A DNA stretch of 39,157 nucleotides from a virus (lineage: Duplodnaviria; Caudoviricetes): the IMG/VR virus record IMGVR_UViG_3300033153_006964, positions 1 to 39,157 of that record; one strand, given 5' to 3'. The notes under the pieces were generated by a model. The model made no database searches, had not been told where the DNA came from, and saw only the letters and a program-made list of their open reading frames with translations. Made by a program: the position numbers and the translations under genes. How positions within the stretch are numbered: the stretch's first letter is position 1; each line of letters starts with the position of its first letter. Of this stretch, positions 10,791 through 39,157 are shown piece after piece.

Positions 10791-11341
10791 TAAATCTAGA
10801 CAATAAAAAGTTAGAGCAGGGCATTAATGCATTTAATTTACTGCTATCATCGAAGTTCTTGGAAAATATCATAGAGAATAAAGTAGATGAATTTGAATCA
10901 AAACATACAAATGTTTCAAAATATCTTTTATCAACCCTCCTTTCCGAGCTTAAGAACAATTTTCAACCTGTTGTTAAAACCTATAGGCCGTGGAATCGAT
11001 GGTCAAAAGCTTATGCCACTACATACACAGGAAATTATAATTTAATCAAAATCAATTCGAGGCGCTTTAATAGGCCGTGGTATTCTCTAGCGGGAACTGT
11101 TGCTCATGAATGGGGCCACTGCTTTGAATATTTCACAAGAAAGATGTATAAAACATATAAATTTAATCATGGAAACAATTCATCAATAGGAAAAGATAAT
11201 ACTTTTCAATATTGGCTTGGCAGGCAGGTTAAACTAGAGCTGATGAAATATGAATCTTATGACGATTTCTTTAAAGCTTTTTATTCTGGCGAATATAATG
11301 GGTTGAACTTCAATAAACCGATGAGTAGAAGTTGGCTATAA
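10787..11341 (+). CDS. Putative zincin-like metallopeptidase
   Basis: HExxH motif (TVAHEWGH) with a downstream His (FNHG). Confidence 0.6.
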   Translation: MINLDNKKLEQGINAFNLLLSSKFLENIIENKVDEFESKHTNVSKYLLSTLLSELKNNFQPVVKTYRPWNRWSKAYATTYTGNYNLIKINSRRFNRPWYSLAGTVAHEWGHCFEYFTRKMYKTYKFNHGNNSSIGKDNTFQYWLGRQVKLELMKYESYDDFFKAFYSGEYNGLNFNKPMSRSWL

Positions 11342-11507
11342 GGTGCTTATTTATTATTTCCGTAACAGCATTATATTTGATCTATTATGCTAACGACTTC
11401 ATAAAAGCCTTCGATATTTGACTAATCATATTTTCTATTTGAAACTATAGTTAATTCAAGGATGAATTGAGTGCGCGCACATTTTTTAACTATTAGGACT
11501 GATAGAA

Positions 11508-12077
11508 ATGACTTCAAAGAAAAATTCTTTAATTAAGCCTAAATTGACTCCTAAGCAAGAGACCTTCTGTCTAGAATATCTAAAAGATTTAAATGCAACT
11601 CAAGCAGCAATTCGAGCTGGATACTCAGAAAAAACAGCCAGACATATAGCATCTCAAAACTTGGCGAAACTTAACATCCAGCATCAAATCCAAAAACTAA
11701 ATAACACAAGAATTAAAGAAGTCAAAGTAGACGCTAACTTCGTACTTGATGAGCTGCACAAACTCGCTAATTCAAATGTTGCAGAAATGTTTGACGACAA
11801 GGGCGTACTTATGCACATCAAACAAATGCCTGAGCATATCCAGAAATCTATACAATCTTTTGACATAGAAGAAGAGCATAAGGTTGATGGAGCAGGCGAA
11901 ATAGTTGTCACAACAAAAATGATAAGAGTAAAGCTTTGGAGTAAGGATAGAGCAATCGAAAACTTAGGAAAACACCTTAGGTTATTCATCGAGAAGGTTG
12001 AGCACAGCAACCCTGATGGAACTCTCCAGCCACAAATAACGGTATACTTGCCAGCAAATAATCGAGAGAAGAAATGA
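11508..12077 (+). CDS. terS: Terminase small subunit
   Basis: LTPKQETFCLEYLKDLNATQAAIRAGYSEKTA signature and KDRAIENLGKHL. Confidence 0.95.
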   Translation: MTSKKNSLIKPKLTPKQETFCLEYLKDLNATQAAIRAGYSEKTARHIASQNLAKLNIQHQIQKLNNTRIKEVKVDANFVLDELHKLANSNVAEMFDDKGVLMHIKQMPEHIQKSIQSFDIEEEHKVDGAGEIVVTTKMIRVKLWSKDRAIENLGKHLRLFIEKVEHSNPDGTLQPQITVYLPANNREKK

Positions 12078-12169
12078 GTGAATATGTCCTTGTGTGTTAT
12101 TTTTTAGGAATATTGTGCGGGTTTATATTGGGTAAGCTGTGGTATGGGAGTTGGGACGATAATGAGTGA
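12074..12169 (+). CDS. Small single-pass membrane peptide (31 aa, not in ORF track)
   Basis: MSEYVLVCYFLGILCGFILGKLWYGSWDDNE, ATGA-coupled to terS. Confidence 0.45.
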   Translation: MSEYVLVCYFLGILCGFILGKLWYGSWDDNE

Positions 12170-12383
12170 TAAAATATGCAGATTAGTAAAGACAATCAAG
12201 AAAGACTATCAGTGGGTTAAGTTTATCTTACCTGATGCTAGAGAGATAAGGTTTTTAGTAAGGGATGATAAGTGTGGCGATAAAAAGAAAAGCAAACTCA
12301 TAATCGATTGTCCGATTGAAACTAAAATAGAATTTGAAGATAACGATAGGTTTGAACTTCCTGACAATATAGGGAACTGTTAA
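12162..12383 (+). CDS. Hypothetical protein, faint CsrA-like pattern
   Basis: GGGAG RBS, beta-rich, KLIIDCPIETKIEFED. Confidence 0.5.
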   Translation: MSDKICRLVKTIKKDYQWVKFILPDAREIRFLVRDDKCGDKKKSKLIIDCPIETKIEFEDNDRFELPDNIGNC

Positions 12384-12385
12384 GT

Positions 12386-12898
12386 ATGGAGAATAATATG
12401 GAAGAGATATGGAGGGATATAGCAGGATATGAGGGAATTTATCAAGTGAGCAATCTTGGGAGTGTGAGAAATAGCGATAAACTTATTCTTAAGCAACAGA
12501 TTTTTAATGGTTATATGAACATAGGATTATCAAAAAATTGTTACAAGAAAAGATTCTTTACTCATAGGCTAGTAGCAAGTGCCTTTGTTGCGAAAATAAA
12601 GGGCAAAAATATTGTAAACCACAAAGATTTTAATAAGACCAACAATAATCATGAGAATCTTGAATTTTGCACTCAAAAAGAAAATATTAATCATGCAATT
12701 AGTGCGGGAAGGTTTTATTTTAATCACAAGGACAAGATTATAGATATCCCTGATGAAATTATCAACAGGCTTGGTTCGTGTTGCGACAGAGAGCTTGCAG
12801 AGATAGCCGGGGTAGATAGGAAGACAATTGGAAACAGAAGGGCAGCTCTAGGAATAAAATCATATGCTGAAAAAAGAAAAGAAAGGAAGCAATTGTGA
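12386..12898 (+). CDS. Free-standing NUMOD4-HNH homing endonuclease (start possibly 12398)
   Basis: NUMOD4 EIWRDIAGYEGIYQVSNLGSVR, HNH HRLVA...VNHKDFNKTNNNHENLEFCTQKENINHA, and a C-terminal HTH-like DRELAEIAGVDRKTI. Confidence 0.92.
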   Translation: MENNMEEIWRDIAGYEGIYQVSNLGSVRNSDKLILKQQIFNGYMNIGLSKNCYKKRFFTHRLVASAFVAKIKGKNIVNHKDFNKTNNNHENLEFCTQKENINHAISAGRFYFNHKDKIIDIPDEIINRLGSCCDRELAEIAGVDRKTIGNRRAALGIKSYAEKRKERKQL

Positions 12899-12918
12899 AA
12901 AACAATAAAGGGGGTAAT

Positions 12919-14383
12919 ATGGAATCACAGGAAAATGCTTTGCGCATAGCTCCTCAAGATGGGCCGCAAACAGAATTCTTAAGTAGTGTCGCTGATATAG
13001 CGATTTACGGTGGTTCCGCATAAAGAGGGTGGAGGCAAGACCTATGGGATGCTATTAGATCCCCTTAGGCATGTAAATACTACCCCAGGTGGCGGAGCTG
13101 TATATTTTAGAAAAACAACAACACAAATACGTAATGAAGGTGGGTTATTTCAGGAAGCGTGTGATCTTTACATGAAGCTTGGCGGAGTGCCAAGGCAAAG
13201 TCCTAGTATGGACATAACATTTCCGCACCCGACAAACGCAAATAAAAATGGCTTTAAAGTCACATTCTCTCATCTTCAGCATGAGAAAGATAAATATAAT
13301 TGGCAAGGCGCGCAAATTCCAATTATTTACATGGATGAATTGACTCATTTCTCGCGTAGCCAATTTTTTTATTTAGTAGGTAGAAATAGATCTACATGCG
13401 GAATTGATCCGTACGTTAGAGCGACGTGCAATCCAGACAAAACCTCGTGGGTTCGAGACTTTATTGACTATTGGATAGACTCTGATGGCTGGGCCATACC
13501 AGAGAGGTCTGGGAAATTAAGATGGCTTTGCGTATTTGACGACAAAGACCATTGGTTTGACTCAAAAGAAGAAGCGCTTGAATCTTTTCCTAACATCCCG
13601 CCAATGTCGATTACCTTTATATTGTCACGTCTAAAGGACAATAAAATACTTATGGATAGAGATCCTGGATATTTGGCAAAATTAAAATCGCTTTCAAAGG
13701 TAGAGAGAGAGCGCTTATTGGGCGATGAGGAGCGTGGAGGCAATTGGCAGATCGTACCTGCTGCAGGAATGTACTTTAAGCGGCATTATTTTGAAGAAGT
13801 TGATCATCTTCCAAACTTTATTGAAGTTGTCAGATGTTGGGACAGAGCAGCAACAGAGCATAACCCTGGTGATGCAGGCGATCCCGATTGGACTGTTGGC
13901 GTTAAGATGGGGCGAACATATGACAATGAGTTTGTCGTATTGGACGTAGAGCGTCAGAGATTGTCAGCAGGTAAAGTCTCGAGACTGATACTAAACACAG
14001 CACGGCAAGATGGCGTAAACGTCAAAATCAAAGGCTTTCAGGATCCGGGGAGTGCAGGAAAAGGCGAGGCAGAGGCATTTGTCAAGATGCTGTCTGGGTT
14101 TAACGTAACAACCGAAAGAATATCAATCAATAAAGAGACTGCTGCACTGCCTTTGTCAGCTCAGGCCGAGAATAATAACGTCAAGGTGTTGACTTCCTGT
14201 AGAAATAAAGAATACTTCTATGATGAGCTTGAAAATTTTCCTGATGATTCTCATGATGATATTGTTGACGGAGCTAGTGGAGCTTTCAATGAATTAAACT
14301 CTGGTAATGTTGGAGAGTTTACAGATAAATTTAATCAAAGTAGCATTAGACAAGATAATCAAACTTTAAAAGATGTGTGGTAA
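12919..14383 (+). CDS. terL: Terminase large subunit, interrupted by a 7-nt insert at 13021..13027 (485 aa if skipped)
   Basis: GGGGG RBS and ATG 12919 give MESQENALRIAPQDGPQTEFLSSVADIAIYGGSA-stop. The +1 frame continues GGGKTYGMLLD, Walker B IYMDE, ATCNP, nuclease CWDRA and HDDIVD. Confidence 0.9.
13021..13027 (+). other. 7-nt coding gap TAAAGAG in the terL Walker A motif (candidate recoding site or artefact)
   Basis: GGT GGT TCC GCA [TAAAGAG] GGT GGA GGC AAG ACC. Removing the insert restores GGSAGGGKT. Confidence 0.85.
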
Positions 14384-14385
14384 AG

Positions 14386-15798
14386 ATGGGCATATTAGAT
14401 TTTTTCTCAAGAGACCAAAAGAAAGACGAAAGTGAAGCTGAAACAAAAGTTATAAATGAAATAGTAATTCAAGAAAGATCAAGAGGTACATCGGGAACTG
14501 AGGTTTTTGCTGGTTACTATGACGAAGAATATCTTGAGTTAATGAAAAGCACTGACAGGGCCAAAGAATTCGACAGAATGAGAAGGTCTGACTCTCAGGT
14601 CAAAATGCTTATCTCTTCGGCTGTTAATCCGATTAGGACTGCCTCAAGAGAGATCGTTTCAGCGTCAGATGATGCGGAGCATGAGAAGCATGCAGCCCTT
14701 TGTAGGCAAGTACTATTTAAAGACATAAGATTTACCAAGTTCCTTGGCGAGGCAGCTAACGGCCTTGTAATACATGGGCACGTACTGCACGAAAAGGTTC
14801 ACAGGGTAAATGTTGACAAGCCAATCACTGATGATGATGGCAACTTAGTCTTAAACTCATACATAGGGCTAAAGAAGCTTGGATGGCGAAGTCAGAAGAC
14901 CATTGAAACCTGGAATTTTAATGAAGAGAAAGAATTTGAATCAATTACTCAGCAAGCAGATGGAGACTTAGATTCTTACGTTGATATCCCACAAAAGCAT
15001 TTGATGGTTATGACACTAGACTATGAGGGTGACAACCTGGAAGGCATCTCAATGCTTAGGCCGTGCTACGGTAACTACTATAGAAAGAATGTTTATCTAA
15101 AATTAAATGCAATTGGTATCGAGAAATCAATGCCAATACCAACAGCTGAAGTGCCTGCGGGCCAAGAGCATTCAGCTCAATTTGATCAGCTAATTAATGC
15201 ATTATCGGCCTTCACAACACACCAAAAGAATTATTTAATATATCCAGCGGGGTGGAATGTTCAACTTAATAGCGGAACAAACTATGATCCTGCAAAGGTT
15301 GAGCAATCAATAGACAATGAAGACAAACGAATGGCCAAGGCTTTTCTTGCTAACTTCCTAGAACTTGGGATGTCAGGCGGTGGCGGTAGTGGATCGTATG
15401 CAATGTCTAACGATCTATCGGACTTCTTTTTGGCTGGAATAATGATTTTTGCTGAAATAATTAAAGAAGAAATTGATGAGCTATTGAAAGAAATTGTAAT
15501 ACTTAACTTTGGTGAGCAAGATAAGTACCCAGAGTTTAAATTCTCAGGAATTAAAGACAAAGCTGGTGCAGAATTTGCTAAAGTAATGGATCTAATGATT
15601 AAAAGTAAAGTTATTATTCCAGATGATAATCTTGAAAAACATGTAAGAAAAAGAATCGGTGTTACCGAGAAATCAGACGAGGGCCAGCGTGATATTGAGC
15701 CAGAAAAAGAAGTGCCGATAGACGCTGCCCCCTTGTCTTTATCTGAAAAGATAGGGTTTGCAATTAAAGAGAAGAGAAAATTGCTAGGGGATGAATAG
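14386..15798 (+). CDS. Portal protein (Mu gp29 / DUF935-like)
   Basis: Follows terL, ~470 aa. FDRMRRSDSQV, GISMLRPCY, GSYAMS and FGEQDKYPEFKF patterns. Confidence 0.85.
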   Translation: MGILDFFSRDQKKDESEAETKVINEIVIQERSRGTSGTEVFAGYYDEEYLELMKSTDRAKEFDRMRRSDSQVKMLISSAVNPIRTASREIVSASDDAEHEKHAALCRQVLFKDIRFTKFLGEAANGLVIHGHVLHEKVHRVNVDKPITDDDGNLVLNSYIGLKKLGWRSQKTIETWNFNEEKEFESITQQADGDLDSYVDIPQKHLMVMTLDYEGDNLEGISMLRPCYGNYYRKNVYLKLNAIGIEKSMPIPTAEVPAGQEHSAQFDQLINALSAFTTHQKNYLIYPAGWNVQLNSGTNYDPAKVEQSIDNEDKRMAKAFLANFLELGMSGGGGSGSYAMSNDLSDFFLAGIMIFAEIIKEEIDELLKEIVILNFGEQDKYPEFKFSGIKDKAGAEFAKVMDLMIKSKVIIPDDNLEKHVRKRIGVTEKSDEGQRDIEPEKEVPIDAAPLSLSEKIGFAIKEKRKLLGDE

Positions 15799-16043
15799 TG
15801 GGAGAGTTCCACAAATCACCAGGGCAGATAATCAGGAGGGTTTTTAATGCCGTCCTTAATGCAATAAGAGTGAGCGATGTCAGCACAATAATTGACTTTG
15901 AGTGGGATGAATTTACTGTTGATGATTCTGATCCTGTAAAAGATGTTTATAATTACACACTTGATTCTGTCGCAGCAGGGTCAATAGAGATTACTTACGA
16001 AGATACATGCAAAGACAAGGTTGTTGGAGCAAGTCGTTTATAG
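15798..16043 (+). CDS. Hypothetical (virion-associated?) protein
   Basis: Coupled to the portal stop, GGGGA RBS. Confidence 0.6.
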   Translation: MGEFHKSPGQIIRRVFNAVLNAIRVSDVSTIIDFEWDEFTVDDSDPVKDVYNYTLDSVAAGSIEITYEDTCKDKVVGASRL

Positions 16044-16058
16044 TTAAAGGGAATTAAC

Positions 16059-16241
16059 ATGCCTTATTCATTTAATCCGTTTACTGGGAACTTAGATTTT
16101 CACAAACCAAGAAATTATTCTTATAATTATATAAAAGCTGATGCCATTGTGTGCATCCCACAATATGAGCAAATGGCCATAAGGGGTCGCTTAACTATTG
16201 TTGGCAGAATTAAGATAGATGGAAGATTATCTTTAATTTAA
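16059..16241 (+). CDS. Small hypothetical structural protein
   Basis: AAGGGA RBS. N-terminal FNPFTGNLD motif reminiscent of phage fibre-associated proteins. Confidence 0.6.
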   Translation: MPYSFNPFTGNLDFHKPRNYSYNYIKADAIVCIPQYEQMAIRGRLTIVGRIKIDGRLSLI

Positions 16242-16253
16242 CAAGGAAGTAAT

Positions 16254-19200
16254 ATGTCAGACATTGACTTAACCAAGAAAGCAGAGCCCGCAGATGGTGA
16301 TTGTCCAGCAGGATCATTAATCGTTTGGGCCGATGATACCGACGATACATTAAAATCTAAAGATGGTGATACTAAAGAAGTATTATCTTATGGTGATACC
16401 AAGAAGCTTCTTGTAAGCAGCGACGACACCACTGAGAACTATCTCGAAAATAAAATCTCGGCAGGAACCAACATATCCATTGCAACAACGAGCCCCGGGG
16501 GTGATGAGACAGTTGAAATAAGCACAAACATTACTGACGTTGACTATGCCATTGTAAACATAACAAATAAGATTGGTGATCCGTCTCACATTGACACGCT
16601 TGATGAAGTACTAAACCACCACTGGAGTGCGGGGGTTGTCCATGATTGTGATATAAGCGATAACTCAGATGGCTCCGTCGCTACAGGTAGTGGTTACGCG
16701 ATGCTAAGACCAGCAGCAAGTCCACACGCGACATTAACCTCCGTCGAGGTAAGCGCACAAACACCAATAAGTTTAACGAATAATTCCACAAACTATATAT
16801 ACCTTGACTACAACTCAGGATCACCACAGTTCGTAGCTTCAACATCACAAGCAAGTTTTAATTGCCTTGATAAATGTTTAACTTATATTGTTCATAGAGA
16901 AGATAACGACTTAGATATTATTAATGTTTCAGAACAGACCGTTGATGGGAATAGAAAAACAAGAGTAAGGTGGCTCAATACTCTAAGGTTCGCTCACTCA
17001 GAGGGTGGATCAATTTTAGGAGAATCAGGAACGAGGAATGTCACGCTAACGGCAGGGGCTTTCTGGTTTATGCTGACAGAAATAGACCACACTGCATTTG
17101 ATACGAGCGCTGCAGATACGTTCACGTATTACTATCATGTATCTGGTGTAATGACGGCAACCGCAAGTCAAACACAAATAAATAATACCCAATATGATTC
17201 TGGTACGGACATGATTACAATGACTAACAATCGTTATAGGGTGGATGATGTATACATAATTAACAATGAGCCGAGTTCCCTTGCAATCATAGCGGGACAA
17301 GCAGAGTATGCTTCACTATCAGGAGCGCAGGCAGCAGATCTTGCGCCGATAACTCACCCTAGAATTACCGGGATGGGCTCTTTAGTTGGGAGGATAATTA
17401 TTCTGAGAGACGCAGCATCATTTGCTGATGTATTAAGCGCCTTCGAGCAAGTATTCTCAGGATCAACACCATCGAATCATGAAAACTTAGCAGGGCTACT
17501 GGGTGGGGCTGCTGCAGATCACTTTCATTTAACAACAGCACAACATACAATCGCAACGCAACCTGCAACCGGGTCTGTTGATGGATACACAACAACATCT
17601 GCACAGACATTTGCTGGTAACAAAACATTTAACGACTCTCTTGGTATTGGTGTAACTCCTACTCACCAATTTCATACACTACTTACAAGCGAAGACAATT
17701 TCTTTATAGATGGTAGAAGTAGTTTGCGCAACATCACACTGGGAGCTATAAGGCAATCTCATTCTCCACAAATACCAGGAACAAGAGCATATCATTTTGA
17801 CATTAGAAGCAACGGTCAAGATGATACAAGAGCGATTGTCATTAGGCATGACCTAGAGGGTGGGACTGAAACCATTAGACCTAAGTGTATGTCATTATCT
17901 GCAGAGGTGACTGGCGCAACGAATTACCACTTCAATATGATTGAATTTGATAAGTCAGGAGATGTTGACGCATCGGCGGCTATAGATGCCATAGAAATAA
18001 GAGGTGGGATAAACCCAATACATCATCTTTCAGGAACACCAGATAATATAGAGAGTGCATTTAAAGAAGATAGTGGCTTCACAGACGTCACAGGTGCTTT
18101 TGCGTCCAGCGGCTCCAACGTCGCCTTGTTCGAAAACGATAATTCGTATATTTACATCGGGCAAGCAGTACAATACGAGGCTATAGAAATCAATCTCGGA
18201 ACCGTTGCGTCCGGCGCGGGAATAGTTCCAGTGTTTGAATACAGTCAAGGATCATCTGTATGGGAAACAGTGGCCATGTCAGATGGAACAAATGGCCTGA
18301 GAGAGTCAGGCGATCTGGTTTTTGAACCACCAACTCTATGGGCCGTTGACACAGTAAACTCTGTTAGCAACAAGTACTGGATTCGGATTCAACGAACAGC
18401 CGATACATTAGCAACTGCACCGATTGAGAGTACAATCAAGGTAATTTCCCCAGATACTTATGGGTGGGATTTAGACGGCGAGGTTGTCGTTAGAAATGTT
18501 ATATCGAATGGGACTGAATCAAGTTCATTTGGTGGTGATGTTACAATTTCAGGATCAACCGGAATGGGCGTGACTCCTACTCATCATGTACATGTAGAGT
18601 TGCCGGGTGATGACAATGTCTATATTGATGGAACTACACCGAGAACAATAACTAGCGGAGCTATAAAGCAAGATCAAATAGCTGGAACCGATGGAACCAG
18701 AGCTTACTTTATAGACGTTGACTCTAACGGTTTTGACAATGCAAGAGGAATACAAATCAATCACGCCCTTAATGAGAGCACAGCAGATATAAGCCCAACA
18801 AATCTATTGTTGACAGCAGAGGTAAATAACACAGAAAACGCACATGTTCACATGATAGCCTGTACCAAGACTGGTGCAGTTGGGAGTGGAACAGAGATTG
18901 AAGCAATTGAGGTTGGGCTAGGGATTAACCCATTACTGCAAGAGTCAGGATCAATTAGCTCTGCTGATAAAGCTTGGGTGTATGATGGATCATACACAGA
19001 TCGAACAACTGAATTTGGCACATCAGTAAGTAACGTAGAGATCCTAAGTAATGATTTAGATTATATATATGTCTCAAGCTCTTCGGGTACATTTAATTTA
19101 ATTGAGGTAATCCTAGATGTCGTAGCCAGTGAAAACATTTTACCAGTTTTCCAATACTCCCAAGGATCATCTAGCTGGAACACGGTTTCTGTTGCAGATC

Positions 19201-20177
19201 AAACTTCTGGATTTACTTCCAGTGGAATTATCGACATAAGCGATGTGCCGGGTGACTGGGATACTGACACAGTAAACGGCACAGCAGGTTATTGGATACG
19301 TATACAGCGAACCGCTGACACAGTAACAACACCGCCAACAGAACTTACAATTCGCATATCATCGCCAACAGAATTTTTCTGGAATAGCGATGGCGACGTC
19401 TATGTAAACACGCTCACAACTGAATCAACTGTGAACGTAGGTGATCCTGGATTTGAAACATCCGGTGTTAATATAAACGGCACATCTAAGGCAGCAGCAT
19501 TTCGGGTGAACGATTTCGCAGCAGTGTCCCCGTTGATGGCGGTTATTCACAGACACTCAACCACAGAAGAAGCCTCTATCATGTGCATAAGGTCGAAAAG
19601 TGATACAGCATCCCACGGAGCAGTTACAAACGACGATTGCATAATGTCGATAACAGGTGCTGGGTGGACTGGATCGCACTACGATGAATGTGCTAAAATA
19701 GAATTTTGCATAGATTCAACAGGAACCGTTTCAAGCACGAGCTCTCCCGGCAAAATTAGTCTGAAAACAACGCCTGATTCATCAAATACACCAGTAGAAA
19801 GAATGGCAATAGATAGCGTGGGTGATGCTACTTTTGAAAAAAGTGTCGCTGTAAATGGCCAGGCATATTCACTGACAAACACCTTATCAGATGCCGCAAC
19901 AATAGCAACTGACTGCAGCCTTGGAAATGTTCACGAGGTTACAATAACAGCAAATCGAACACTCGGAGCACCGACAAATCTAGTCGATGGCTCAACTTAT
20001 ATTTGGAGAATAATACAAGATGGATCGGGTGGGCATACACTTGCGTTTAACGCCGTGTTTGACTTTGGGGATGCCGGAGCACCAACTATATCATCTGGCA
20101 TAGATAAAATAAGCTATATAACTGGAATATCAGATGGAACAAACATTCATGTCGCTGCGGCACTGGGGTTTAATTAA
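16254..20177 (+). CDS. Large fibre/adhesin-like structural protein with internal ~306-aa duplication
   Basis: 1307 aa, S/T/G/D-rich. QTFAGNKTF fibre motif, two repeats GxGVTPTH...YWIRIQRTADT, C-terminal adaptor-like ANRTLGAPTNL...IIQDGSGGHTL. Confidence 0.7.
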   Translation: MSDIDLTKKAEPADGDCPAGSLIVWADDTDDTLKSKDGDTKEVLSYGDTKKLLVSSDDTTENYLENKISAGTNISIATTSPGGDETVEISTNITDVDYAIVNITNKIGDPSHIDTLDEVLNHHWSAGVVHDCDISDNSDGSVATGSGYAMLRPAASPHATLTSVEVSAQTPISLTNNSTNYIYLDYNSGSPQFVASTSQASFNCLDKCLTYIVHREDNDLDIINVSEQTVDGNRKTRVRWLNTLRFAHSEGGSILGESGTRNVTLTAGAFWFMLTEIDHTAFDTSAADTFTYYYHVSGVMTATASQTQINNTQYDSGTDMITMTNNRYRVDDVYIINNEPSSLAIIAGQAEYASLSGAQAADLAPITHPRITGMGSLVGRIIILRDAASFADVLSAFEQVFSGSTPSNHENLAGLLGGAAADHFHLTTAQHTIATQPATGSVDGYTTTSAQTFAGNKTFNDSLGIGVTPTHQFHTLLTSEDNFFIDGRSSLRNITLGAIRQSHSPQIPGTRAYHFDIRSNGQDDTRAIVIRHDLEGGTETIRPKCMSLSAEVTGATNYHFNMIEFDKSGDVDASAAIDAIEIRGGINPIHHLSGTPDNIESAFKEDSGFTDVTGAFASSGSNVALFENDNSYIYIGQAVQYEAIEINLGTVASGAGIVPVFEYSQGSSVWETVAMSDGTNGLRESGDLVFEPPTLWAVDTVNSVSNKYWIRIQRTADTLATAPIESTIKVISPDTYGWDLDGEVVVRNVISNGTESSSFGGDVTISGSTGMGVTPTHHVHVELPGDDNVYIDGTTPRTITSGAIKQDQIAGTDGTRAYFIDVDSNGFDNARGIQINHALNESTADISPTNLLLTAEVNNTENAHVHMIACTKTGAVGSGTEIEAIEVGLGINPLLQESGSISSADKAWVYDGSYTDRTTEFGTSVSNVEILSNDLDYIYVSSSSGTFNLIEVILDVVASENILPVFQYSQGSSSWNTVSVADQTSGFTSSGIIDISDVPGDWDTDTVNGTAGYWIRIQRTADTVTTPPTELTIRISSPTEFFWNSDGDVYVNTLTTESTVNVGDPGFETSGVNINGTSKAAAFRVNDFAAVSPLMAVIHRHSTTEEASIMCIRSKSDTASHGAVTNDDCIMSITGAGWTGSHYDECAKIEFCIDSTGTVSSTSSPGKISLKTTPDSSNTPVERMAIDSVGDATFEKSVAVNGQAYSLTNTLSDAATIATDCSLGNVHEVTITANRTLGAPTNLVDGSTYIWRIIQDGSGGHTLAFNAVFDFGDAGAPTISSGIDKISYITGISDGTNIHVAAALGFN

Positions 20178-20905
20178 TGTTTACTTTTCCTTTTGCCCTG
20201 CAGAGTGGGGTTGCCTTTATTAATGAGTTCAGTATGGATTTTGACGGTTCAGATGAATACGTTGATTGTGGAAGCATTGCTGATTTTGATTATCAAGATC
20301 CGTTCTCCCTTGCTGCGTGGGTTAAACTAACAGCAAATAGCTTCCATGCGATACTGTCAAAACAGTCAGTAAAGGTTGGATCAACCTCTAGGGGGTGGGT
20401 GTTTTATTTTGATGGAGGTAAGTTGAAATTAATTCACAGAAACGCAATAGGCAACGAGGCGTGGATTGAATCTCAATCGACCTACAATGATGGAGATTGG
20501 CATTTTGTTGTTGCCACATATGATGGAAGCGAAAGCGCTGCAACGGGCATGAAGATATATGTTGACGGAAGCTCTGTTGTAACAACAACAATAGAAGATA
20601 CTTTATCAGCAACAACTCAAATTGGAATAAACTGCAAAATAGGGGTAAGGGACACAAATTTGTACTTTGATGGGAAGATTGACGAGCCCGCAATTTATGA
20701 CAGAGAGTTGTCGTCAGGAGACGTCACAGCACTATATAGCGACACCGTGCCCAAAGATATTAGCACGACAAGCCCTTATGCGTGGTGGAGATTTACACAA
20801 GCAGACAAAGACGGATTTGCAACAATACTAGACCATTCTGGAAATGCAAGAAATGGAACGGCAGTGAATATGGAAAGTTCCGATATAAATGTGGATGTTC
20901 CTTAA
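20177..20905 (+). CDS. LamG / concanavalin A-like lectin domain protein
   Basis: FDGSDEYV, FSLAAWVK, DGDWHFVVATYDG, KIYVDG, FDGKIDEPAIYDRELS. Confidence 0.9.
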   Translation: MFTFPFALQSGVAFINEFSMDFDGSDEYVDCGSIADFDYQDPFSLAAWVKLTANSFHAILSKQSVKVGSTSRGWVFYFDGGKLKLIHRNAIGNEAWIESQSTYNDGDWHFVVATYDGSESAATGMKIYVDGSSVVTTTIEDTLSATTQIGINCKIGVRDTNLYFDGKIDEPAIYDRELSSGDVTALYSDTVPKDISTTSPYAWWRFTQADKDGFATILDHSGNARNGTAVNMESSDINVDVP

Positions 20906-20933
20906 AATAAATACAACAACAAGGATGTAAAAT

Positions 20934-22136
20934 ATGTCAATTTCAGAACCAACAGCAATAGCAATGACTACAGTTTTTGGATATGTATTCGACGATGATG
21001 GTGTCACGCCAATTGAAAATGCTTCAGTTAGGTTTTTATCTAAGTCTTTCATGATTGACGATAATTTAATAAGAATCAATGAAACAGTATTGTCAGATGT
21101 GGACGGTTTATATCAAGCAAGCTTACCCCAAACATCTCCGATAGGTGCTATTGTGAATGTTGAAATTTCCTGGACGGATTCAGACGGTGGCGTTCATGGC
21201 AGAAAAGAAACAATTGCAGTTGGGACAAGCTCGCCTGTTAGTGTTCAAGAATCAAGGGTAGTAACTGTCGGTTCCGCTGTTGTTGGTGCCTCTGGCGGCG
21301 ACGTTGTGGGCCCGGTAGGCGCAACAAATAATGCGTTAGCAAGATTTGACCTGGGCACTGGAAAGCTAATCAAAAACACTGGTGCGATACTGGATAATTC
21401 CAATAATTTATCTGGAATTGGGGACATCGCACTATCAGGAACAGTAGATGGAAGAAATGTCTCTGCCGATGGTACCGCCATAGATTTAAATACAGCAAAA
21501 GATACAAACGCAACGCATACTGGAGAAATAACAGGTGAAACGGCTTTAACGCTAGATAAAACCGCAATTTCAAATAAAGACGTTGTTACGGTTGATGATG
21601 CTGATTATATTTTAATAGAAGACAGCTCTGATGATAGTAATTTGAAAAAAGTACTGGCCTCAGATTTTGGTGGAGGCGGTGGTGGCACTGCCGTAGAGAT
21701 TGCGTACCTCAAAGACGTCCAAGCGAGCGGGGTTGATGGCGGCGATTTTACACAAAATGCATGGCAAACCAGAGTCCTGGGTGTAACATCTGGAGATACT
21801 GGCATCGTGAGTTTATCAACTAATCAATTTACACTACAAGCTGGCACTTATCACATTGAAGCAAGCGCCCCTGCTTATGGTGTAAACCAGCACAAATGTA
21901 AATTGCGAAATATTACCGATTCCACTGATGACATAATTGGATCATCAGAGCAACCAAGTTCCGGGGGTATATCCACTTGCAGTTTCTTGTCCGGGGCGAT
22001 AGTGTTAGCTGGAGAGAAAATTTTTGAACTTCAACACAGGTGCTTAAGCACTAGAAACGGTAATGGGTTTGGTAAAAAATCAACCTTTGGCGTTGATGAG
22101 GTTTATTCGCAGGTAAAAATAACAAAATTATCATAA
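20934..22136 (+). CDS. Fibre-like structural protein with C-terminal beta-sandwich (C1q/TNF-like) head
   Basis: GDVVGPVGATNNALARFDLGTGKLIK fibre motif, Gly hinge, NQFTLQAGTYHIEA. Confidence 0.6.
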   Translation: MSISEPTAIAMTTVFGYVFDDDGVTPIENASVRFLSKSFMIDDNLIRINETVLSDVDGLYQASLPQTSPIGAIVNVEISWTDSDGGVHGRKETIAVGTSSPVSVQESRVVTVGSAVVGASGGDVVGPVGATNNALARFDLGTGKLIKNTGAILDNSNNLSGIGDIALSGTVDGRNVSADGTAIDLNTAKDTNATHTGEITGETALTLDKTAISNKDVVTVDDADYILIEDSSDDSNLKKVLASDFGGGGGGTAVEIAYLKDVQASGVDGGDFTQNAWQTRVLGVTSGDTGIVSLSTNQFTLQAGTYHIEASAPAYGVNQHKCKLRNITDSTDDIIGSSEQPSSGGISTCSFLSGAIVLAGEKIFELQHRCLSTRNGNGFGKKSTFGVDEVYSQVKITKLS

Positions 22137-23000: not shown

Positions 23001-23207
23001 TCAAGAATAAAGTTCTCTATATCTGCGCTCTAATTCGCTAATTAAATAACAAAGTTCAAGCTCATTTATGTTTTCTGATATGTATGTGGCCAATTTCTCT
23101 TGTCCATCATCTAAATAGCAAGCAATAACAAACTTACTAGAGCAATAATCTCTGTTAAATATTCTTTCCAATGATCCGATTGAGTCTAAGTCAATTATTT
23201 CTGCCAT
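23001..23207 (-). CDS. Hypothetical protein (antisense to late genes)
   Basis: Fills the gap between gpF and the protease. AGGA RBS within the upstream ORF. Confidence 0.6.
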   Translation of the reverse strand: MAEIIDLDSIGSLERIFNRDYCSSKFVIACYLDDGQEKLATYISENINELELCYLISELERRYRELYS

Positions 23208-23343
23208 TTTTTCTATCCTGAATACACTTAATTACTTTCTGTAAATTCTTAGCTAAAACCCTGTCATTATTTTCTATGGCATTCTTTAATTGATCTTCTA
23301 AATTTTTTAATGATGCAACGTGTTCTTTTGTTTGCTTTGCCAT
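23191..23343 (-). CDS. Small helical hypothetical protein (50 aa, antisense to late genes)
   Basis: ATG 23343, MAKQTKEHVASLKNLEDQLKNAIENNDRVLAKNLQ. Confidence 0.55.
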   Translation of the reverse strand: MAKQTKEHVASLKNLEDQLKNAIENNDRVLAKNLQKVIKCIQDRKNGRNN

Positions 23344-23370
23344 AATTAAAAATATCATTAAAAATATGGT

Positions 23371-23398
23371 TTGACATAACATTTTAATAAACTACCAT
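23371..23398 (+). promoter_or_regulatory. Putative sigma70 promoter for the protease/capsid operon, probably leaderless
   Basis: TTGACA-16 nt-TACCAT, ATG 7 nt downstream, no SD. Confidence 0.5.
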
Positions 23399-23405
23399 TT
23401 AAGTA

Positions 23406-38924: not shown

Positions 38925-39157
38925 AACTTCAATATCTATTTCTATTTTATATTTTTCTGAATGAATTTTTTCAAAGCTACCTTTTTTCACAAAAGCATCG
39001 TCAAATGATAATCCCAGGAATAGCGTGTCCTGTGTTGGTTTTAATGGATTGTCAGCATCTCCAGAGGCCTTGCTTATTCGCCCATCTTTTCTATTAACCG
39101 GGAAGTAAAATTTGTACTCGACAAATAAATAGTGTGATTTTTCATCAAAATACTTGT
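38904..39157 (-). CDS. rusA: RusA-like resolvase, C-terminal part (joined to 187..1)
   Basis: FDEKSHYLFVEYKFYFP...SGDADNPLKPTQDTLFLGLSFDDAFV: DxDN..K...D and DD catalytic pattern. TGA at 38904-38906. Confidence 0.78.
   Translation of the reverse strand, partial: KYFDEKSHYLFVEYKFYFPVNRKDGRISKASGDADNPLKPTQDTLFLGLSFDDAFVKKGSFEKIHSEKYKIEIDIEVLQYLDN

Follow-up and report, generated by a model that had tools for sequence, protein, structure and literature searches.

A stop-led 7-nt gap in the Walker A motif of a phage large terminase gene, probably the end of a miniature endonuclease cassette crossed by ribosomal hopping

Natural bypassing has been established in few genes: gene 60 of T4 and its homologues, the byps of Magnusiomyces and, probably, the terminase gene of Hau3. 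The 50-nt bypass of T4 gene 60 occurs together with the homing-endonuclease element MobA; the gap is reported to block nicking, and the nuclease is reported to be lost stepwise (bioRxiv 10.1101/2022.08.31.505936, citing Bonocora 2011). The mitochondrial byps are inserts of 27–55 nt in essential genes, which are triggered by unused codons and skipped by the ribosome (bioRxiv 10.1101/2022.08.31.505936). The initial annotation of the locus described here mentioned a short bypass proposed in a Streptomyces phage terminase, and such a report exists: gaps of 10 and 7 nt, led by the rare sense codon UUA, are described in the large terminase genes of Hau3, StrepC.1 and S. catenulae (3 of 100 genes), and UUA is read there as a host-stage sensor (PMC10732093). 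Mass spectrometry supports the hop in Hau3 g6/g7 when UUA is changed to UAA in E. coli, and a word search of the main text of that report found no homing endonuclease (PMC10732093). In regards to stop codons, the synthetic hops described are low-level, unprogrammed events in reporters, and a 2016 review knew of no natural in-frame stop hop (PMC5009743, bioRxiv 10.1101/2024.12.09.627546). Finally, inteins occupy the Walker A codons of terL; they are mobile and endonuclease-driven, hundreds of bases long and in frame, and are removed post-translationally by protein splicing (PMC5050341).

We analysed a whole virus record of 39,157 nt, rated 100% complete (hereafter, the window). The window has the gene order of a tailed phage, with replication genes followed by terS, terL, portal, head, neck and tail genes, and it holds a single terL. 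The features around terL are as follows.

11508..12077, plus strand: terS, terminase small subunit (phrog_51, E 5e-39)
12144..12383, plus strand: 79-aa ORF between terS and the endonuclease gene, which may or may not be part of the cassette (from the ORF list; no match in PHROG and Pfam scans)
12386..12898, plus strand: free-standing NUMOD4-HNH endonuclease of 170 aa with a C-terminal repeat domain (PF07463, PF13392)
12909..12914, plus strand: SD-like AGGGGG, 4 nt ahead of the terL start
12919..13020, plus strand: 5' part of terL, from ATG 12919 through 34 codons ending in YGGSA (matches residues 1-27 of intact relatives)
13018-13020, plus strand: inferred take-off codon GCA, the last codon of the 5' part
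13021..13027, plus strand: 7-nt coding gap TAAAGAG, led by an in-frame TAA
13025-13027, plus strand: inferred, imperfect landing triplet GAG, the last triplet of the gap
13028..14383, plus strand: 3' part of terL, from GGGKT to the C-terminus, with the ATPase and RNase H-like nuclease domains (phrog_979, E 2e-134; PF03237, PF17289)
14377..15798, plus strand: intact portal gene (phrog_113; one-piece alignment to relatives)

The initial annotation, made from the letters alone, had described terL as cut inside the Walker A motif by a 7-nt insert containing a stop, and this description was reproduced: the codons TAC GGT GGT TCC GCA are directly followed by TAA at 13021, and the motif resumes 7 nt later with GGT GGA GGC AAG ACC. 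The well-placed RBS and start that it had noted at ATG 12919 correspond to the SD-like element listed above. The 3' part is open for 451 codons up to the stop at 14381-14383, and with the 34 codons of the 5' part it gives the repaired protein of 485 aa that had been proposed. Skipping TAAAGAG yields YGGSAGGGKT and thus restores the invariant motif exactly. There is no homopolymer run at the insert, as had been stated, and the 12-mer formed by the gap and its flank occurs only once in the window.

The 7 nt are probably, in our judgement, the protective end of a mobile cassette, with full-length terminase produced by a hop from the stop codon; the locus would then be a miniature of the MobA/gene 60 arrangement of T4. 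This reading builds on the anatomy of the locus, the recurrence of gaps in the same loop, and their association with upstream endonuclease genes. The cassette would comprise the gene for the HNH endonuclease, a copied terL start and the short non-coding gap. The endonuclease would nick gap-free terL alleles of co-infecting phages near the conserved P-loop codons, repair would copy the cassette into the nicked allele, and the gap, by likeness to T4 MobA, would make the carrier's own allele resistant. During translation, the ribosome would pause when GCA occupies the P site and UAA the A site; the peptidyl-tRNA-Ala would release, slide 7 nt and re-pair, with a synonymous codon in most relatives and only with GAG in the window, and decoding would resume at GGU to give YGGSAGGGKT.

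To describe the state of the gene, we took the 120 top protein matches, among them the gene call of the window itself, and aligned the 113 full-length ones. The length of the P-loop motif was identical in 112 of the 112 motifs counted among these 113 homologues, and no insertion at the break site was found in the top 25 rows of the alignment. Three of the protein matches (P0015, P0026 and P0053) start right at or after the P-loop, and P0053 has a full-length sister within its 90% cluster. The remaining motifs of the protein, which had been called intact, were so: over the read-through protein, all 93 of the columns conserved in 95% of the homologues are kept (93/93). In the AlphaFold model of P0004, the closest intact homologue, the site of the break falls in the loop between the strand 33-38 and the helix 44-55. 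The best fold matches of this model are solved large terminases; a sequence search of the PDB gave no match. Since the break lies in the strand-loop-helix of the P-loop and the homologues lack an insertion there, the position of the gap is not due to chance.

The rest of the genome was compared with related records. The head, neck and tail genes common to the window and two related records gave one-piece, stop-free alignments. The closest relative at the DNA level (L001; 70% identity) has an intact P-loop and carries a methyltransferase gene at the place of the endonuclease gene. The dS values between the window and its DNA-level relatives are saturated. The divergence of the 5' part of terL from close relatives is ordinary (0.70, compared with 0.68 among those relatives), and the window terL forms an ordinary terminal branch in the tree. 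Judged from its sequence, the window therefore appears to contain a real 7-nt stop-led gap in an otherwise intact essential gene, seen in one contig.

That the gap comes from a single contig is the point in favour of an assembly or sequencing artefact, which we consider very improbable. An error would not be expected to place an in-frame stop exactly after the Ala codon at which at least nine other natural gaps start; moreover, the gap adjoins the only HNH gene of the genome, and no other frame break was found among the shared genes. Still more improbable, to the point of being hardly credible, is a permanently split gene, in which the 34-aa peptide would assemble with a separately initiated 3' protein starting at GTG 13010 or ATG 13049. 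MobA-type insertions do include split genes (bioRxiv 10.1101/2022.08.31.505936), and a GGAGG is present at 13031-13035. However, the cut falls inside the phosphate-binding loop in the model of P0004, GTG 13010 has no SD, and a start at ATG 13049 would lose Gly-Lys-Thr; ATG 13044, which is the best spaced from GGAGG, opens another frame, which closes after 4 codons.

The NUMOD4-HNH gene, which the initial annotation had missed, lies directly upstream of terL, ends 20 nt before its ATG and is the sole HNH_3 match in the record. It likely explains why the gap exists. Its C-terminal repeat domain has the pattern LG..xD..LA...GV....I...R...GIxSYA, and alignments indicated that this domain is shared with the HNH and GIY-YIG genes that lie upstream of gapped terL genes elsewhere. 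A viral search with the C-terminal domain alone retrieved 12 loci, 6 of them from the query lineages; all 12 encode the domain directly 5' of terL, and 11 of the 12 terL genes are interrupted. Among the five lineages outside the query, four are interrupted, one of them by merely 1 nt. An endonuclease or its remnant was present upstream in 3 of 4 gapped lineages and at 1 of 74 intact loci in an unbiased set (Fisher P 2e-4), where L268 was counted as positive by eye from a short tail and two of the intact loci had too little upstream DNA for judging.

Several loci appear to preserve stages of such a cassette. L010 and L014 have the old terL start joined to the endonuclease, with a new start placed behind it, as in the HomR of MobA. 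The truncated nucleases of L002, L005 and L161 and the sister pair L145 and L180, with and without a nuclease, match the stepwise loss of MobA. No upstream endonuclease was detectable at 10 of the 19 loci with stop-led gaps described below, and later loss must therefore be assumed in addition. Conversely, L144 bears the endonuclease and has an intact loop. Because the divergence of the window's 5' terL part is ordinary, no foreign HomR is visible in the window. None of 376 candidates was a relative of the window's HNH protein at E<=1e-30. The C-terminal unit itself is a widespread repeat of about 40 aa, found in 4,787 protein representatives with up to 19 copies per protein (P0123-P0272), and scans assigned it to no specific Pfam family; the repeat is therefore informative only in its terL-adjacent form. 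In addition, a near-consensus sigma-70-type promoter (11/12 matches) lies inside the HNH gene at 12737-12765 on the minus strand, in antisense orientation. Such a promoter, predicted from the sequence, could dampen nuclease expression; the promoter scan returned 3 sites compared with 6.5 in shuffles, which is fewer than in shuffles.

The search for relatives with inserts at the same site, as the initial annotation had proposed, found 25 other terL gaps in the same loop. Nineteen of them (17 and 2 more) are stop-led gaps of 4-10 nt in diverse terL genes, and six are longer gaps of 18-66 nt, each led by a sense codon; identical copies were merged, and the 1-nt insertions L150 and L214 did not enter the landing counts, as single-base insertions may be sequencing errors. 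Six examples of the stop-led gaps are given below.

L010: take-off GCT, gap TAGTGCA, resuming at GGC
L014: take-off GCC, gap TAGCG, resuming at GGT
L005: take-off GCC, gap TGAATAAGCT, resuming at GGA
L002: take-off GGC, gap TAATGGC, resuming at GGT
L268: take-off GGT, gap TGAAGGA, resuming at GGC
L145: take-off GGT, gap TAGGGT, resuming at GGG

Skipping each stop-led gap yields the canonical motif, in part by construction, as the pattern scans sought P-loop codons parted by extra bases. The first viral scan gave 7 gapped terL loci among 15 matches, the second gave 17 among 56 (3 of them known already), and a further scan gave 2 new ones among 7. The other matches of the first two scans (8/15 and 39/56) were mostly chance or unrelated genes and were dropped. 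A metagenome scan, which covered 5 of 64 parts with a pattern that was too loose, retrieved 120 loci, of which only L064 was a gapped terL. L002, one of only three loci in the first protein search, was gapped too. In an unbiased sample, made up of the top 80 among 576 terL loci that were selected through motifs far downstream, 79 P-loops were readable: 74 were intact and 5, from 4 lineages, were gapped. In a 96-row FastTree tree, for which support values were not shown and in which row L302 was mis-extracted, seven gapped genes of the window's terL family were scattered, each nearest to an intact gene; this apparent scatter fits repeated gain.

Among bacterial genomes, a search with the endonuclease domain gave seven loci, two of which have a gapped terL (L160 and L161, on Calothrix and Pelatocladus contigs); the remaining five are unrelated repeat proteins. 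No further gapped terL was found in 300 genomes of the order of Calothrix and Pelatocladus. The cassette was not found in cultured phages, the terL side being covered by the best 60 of 1,500 matches. Escherichia phage EC6 gave a two-piece terL match that is split far from the P-loop and was rejected. Single-base insertions occur in the same P-loop in L150, behind a GIY-YIG gene, and in L214; these could be +1 frameshift sites or sequencing errors.

The codons at the ends of the gaps were compared. In 16 of the 19 stop-led gaps, the last triplet encodes the same amino acid as the codon ahead of the stop, although the match was forced by the search pattern in L064, L177, L179 and L180. When one gap per lineage was counted and only where the pattern did not force the match, 9 of 12 were matched (binomial P 1.7e-7 at a chance rate of 0.1). 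In L205, L309 and L315, the third bases differ while the amino acid is kept (GCT/GCC, GCG/GCT and GCT/GCC), and the 5-nt gap with Ala on both sides is retained even though 67-78% of synonymous sites differ among these three genes. Over 3,070 nt, L010 and L016 differ only by five third-position changes, all of them in a stretch of 20 nt around the gap (locus positions 2012-2031), and one of the five turns the landing triplet from GCA to GCG; this cluster likely reflects local re-copying or hypervariation at what would be the nuclease target. Gapped sister genes gave dN/dS values of 0.125 and 0.145, which indicate purifying selection. Because many unrelated phages carry tiny gaps at the same spot, ribosomes likely hop them. 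The initial proposal of a real gap that is eliminated in the course of expression, probably through a short bypass, is thus strengthened by the 25 gaps in the same loop with mostly matched codons; it is weakened at one point, the unmatched landing of the window itself.

The six sense-led gaps are not explained by a stop-triggered take-off, because a sense codon follows the motif, and two of the six are unmatched. L148 (around 2800-2845) and L151 (around 2947-2983) have in-frame gaps of 42 and 36 nt, respectively, with hairpins of 11-14 bp and GNAA loops, and both gaps contain CCCTCTAG; the ends are matched in L151 (GCT/GCA) and unmatched in L148. L011, L018, L161 and L160 have gaps of 18-66 nt that open with TTT or GTT after a Gly codon, and three of these four share CCCCTACT near the 3' end. 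In these four genes, take-off would have to precede arrival at the stop. Another trigger may be used by the six sense-led gaps, some of which form strong hairpins.

Removal of the gap from the mRNA by a splicing-like reaction before translation would require no matched landing codon and would also cover the long hairpin gaps (L148, L151) and the sense-led gaps. However, gaps of 4-10 nt are too short to fold into a ribozyme, the gaps have no common end sequence, and the synonymy of the take-off and landing triplets would matter to a tRNA but not to a nuclease. Rfam gave no match at E<=1 in 11000-16500, and neither splicing nor DNA-level repair, both of which the initial annotation had listed as ways of removing the gap, gained support. 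We therefore rate splicing as highly improbable, and the window gap, with its 7 nt, does not correspond to a group I/II intron or a structured RNA.

A +1 frameshift at GCA-UAA-A, with AAA GAG read as Lys-Glu, would reach the right frame without an unmatched landing and would give YGGSAKEGGGKT, provided that the two extra residues are tolerated. P-loops follow the general pattern [AG]-x4-G-K-[ST], and this product still fits it. Six nt separate the end of an SD-like GGUGGU from the stop, which is the spacing given for the RF2 shift site (PMC10732093); these bases are, however, simply the two Gly codons. The tRNA-Ala is unable to re-pair at +1 (CAU), extra loop residues occur in none of the 112 motifs counted, and relatives with gaps of 5, 6, 8 and 9 nt would require different shifts, whereas a single hop rule accounts for most gaps. 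On these grounds, a frameshift is improbable.

The hop itself meets its main difficulty in the window. The absence of a matched landing codon for GCA, pointed out at the outset, was confirmed: when GAG is compared with GCA, the first base is paired, the third is a wobble and the middle base is mismatched. Of the triplets that follow the stop, GAG is the earliest with a paired first base. A perfect GCA is present downstream at 13035-13037, out of frame, and could capture the tRNA unproductively. The stop context, UAA-A, is not weak. Local hairpins are predicted around the gap, and RNA folding was no stronger there than in shuffles (z +0.1 to -1.6). A search of the window for tRNA and suppressor genes found none.

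These features raise the alternative that the cassette and its gap are real and the window copy is damaged, with the landing GCG changed to GAG by one substitution or miscall and little or no terminase made. GAG is one change away from GCG, on which L014 and L016 land, and a recent mutation or miscall is therefore a real alternative. Other Ala take-offs land on GCN in all cases but one, the out-of-frame GCA competes, and the window's gap is known from one record, no second record with the exact gap having appeared in the viral pattern scans, whose collection may have lacked very near genomes. On the other hand, no decay was found elsewhere: the conserved columns and structural genes are intact, and the terminal branch is ordinary, although no decay would be expected from a very recent mutation. 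Imperfect landing triplets also occur in three other phages (L184, L211 and L269, with the pairs GCC/GTT, GGA/CGA and GGT/AGC), which suggests some tolerance, and latitude in P-site re-pairing has been reported (bioRxiv 10.1101/2022.08.31.505936). We regard a damaged copy as unlikely, though less so than the other alternatives. If the window copy hops, its efficiency is probably low. Terminase is required in small amounts only, and a low efficiency may therefore suffice.

The stop-hop reading can now be set beside the known systems. As in T4 gene 60 and MobA, a free-standing endonuclease gene lies directly 5' of a copied gene start, which closes with a non-coding gap, led by a stop, at a conserved motif; endonucleases of the HNH and GIY-YIG types are interchangeable and may decay or vanish while the gap stays, and the take-off codon matches the landing codon in most members. 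In contrast to MobA, whose target is a topoisomerase gene (Topo2L, with the tails CTE and NTE), the window cassette has the terL P-loop as its target, and there is no split into two proteins with such tails. The gap of 7 nt is one seventh as long as that of gene 60 (4-10 nt in the short class) and leaves no room for a take-off stem-loop, a mini-SD or an AU-rich tract. The window nuclease is compared with MobA by its arrangement and not as a demonstrated homologue. The window cassette would thus work like MobA/gene 60 and is not a member, on account of its target, gap length and unmatched landing.

The Streptomyces gaps are likewise short and lie in large terminase genes, although the window gap starts with UAA and not with UUA and belongs to a different TerL family. 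The Hau3 g6/g7 junction, GWG/K, looks like a P-loop, which we presume from the P-loop motif. Unlike the reporter stop hops, the window gap shifts the frame and its landing is unmatched. The TerL inteins share with the window's proposed cassette the mobility, the endonuclease and the Walker A codons, and differ in being in frame and removed from the protein. The Magnusiomyces byps share short inserts in essential genes and are closer to the long hairpin gaps (L148, L151) than to the window gap. In full-text literature, mostly non-subscription, no endonuclease-linked stop-led gaps in the terL P-loop were found, only the UUA-led terminase gaps of Streptomyces.

A broader proposal, which we hold only tentatively, is that homing endonucleases repeatedly plant stop-led gaps of 4-10 nt in the terminase P-loop that are hopped without a dedicated RNA structure, and that the hop in the window succeeds despite the mismatched middle base, landing being set by distance and not by codon match. 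If true, a few per cent of one large terL family would contain a minimal natural bypass element that gene callers have missed; about 6% of the loci in one terL sample (5/79) would be annotated as truncated genes or pseudogenes. More than 20 natural gaps of 4-66 nt in one invariant motif, with matched and unmatched landings, make the minimum hop signal and the tolerated degree of P-site mismatch testable. They also suggest that a homing endonuclease may protect a conserved target in an essential gene by yet another route than introns, inteins or split genes.

Other features of the record were observed. The same 9 bases occur at 1-9 and 39149-39157, which suggests that the record, classed as linear, may be a circular assembly. 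Between the portal and head-morphogenesis genes, a stretch of about 6 kb (15798-22136), which is not at that place in two relatives, encodes a 1,307-aa protein without a Pfam or PHROG match, a laminin G protein and a tail-fibre-like protein. Between the head-morphogenesis and protease genes, 400 nt (23001-23405) contain no plus-strand ORF; relatives have about 50 nt there, and small minus-strand genes are possible in this stretch.
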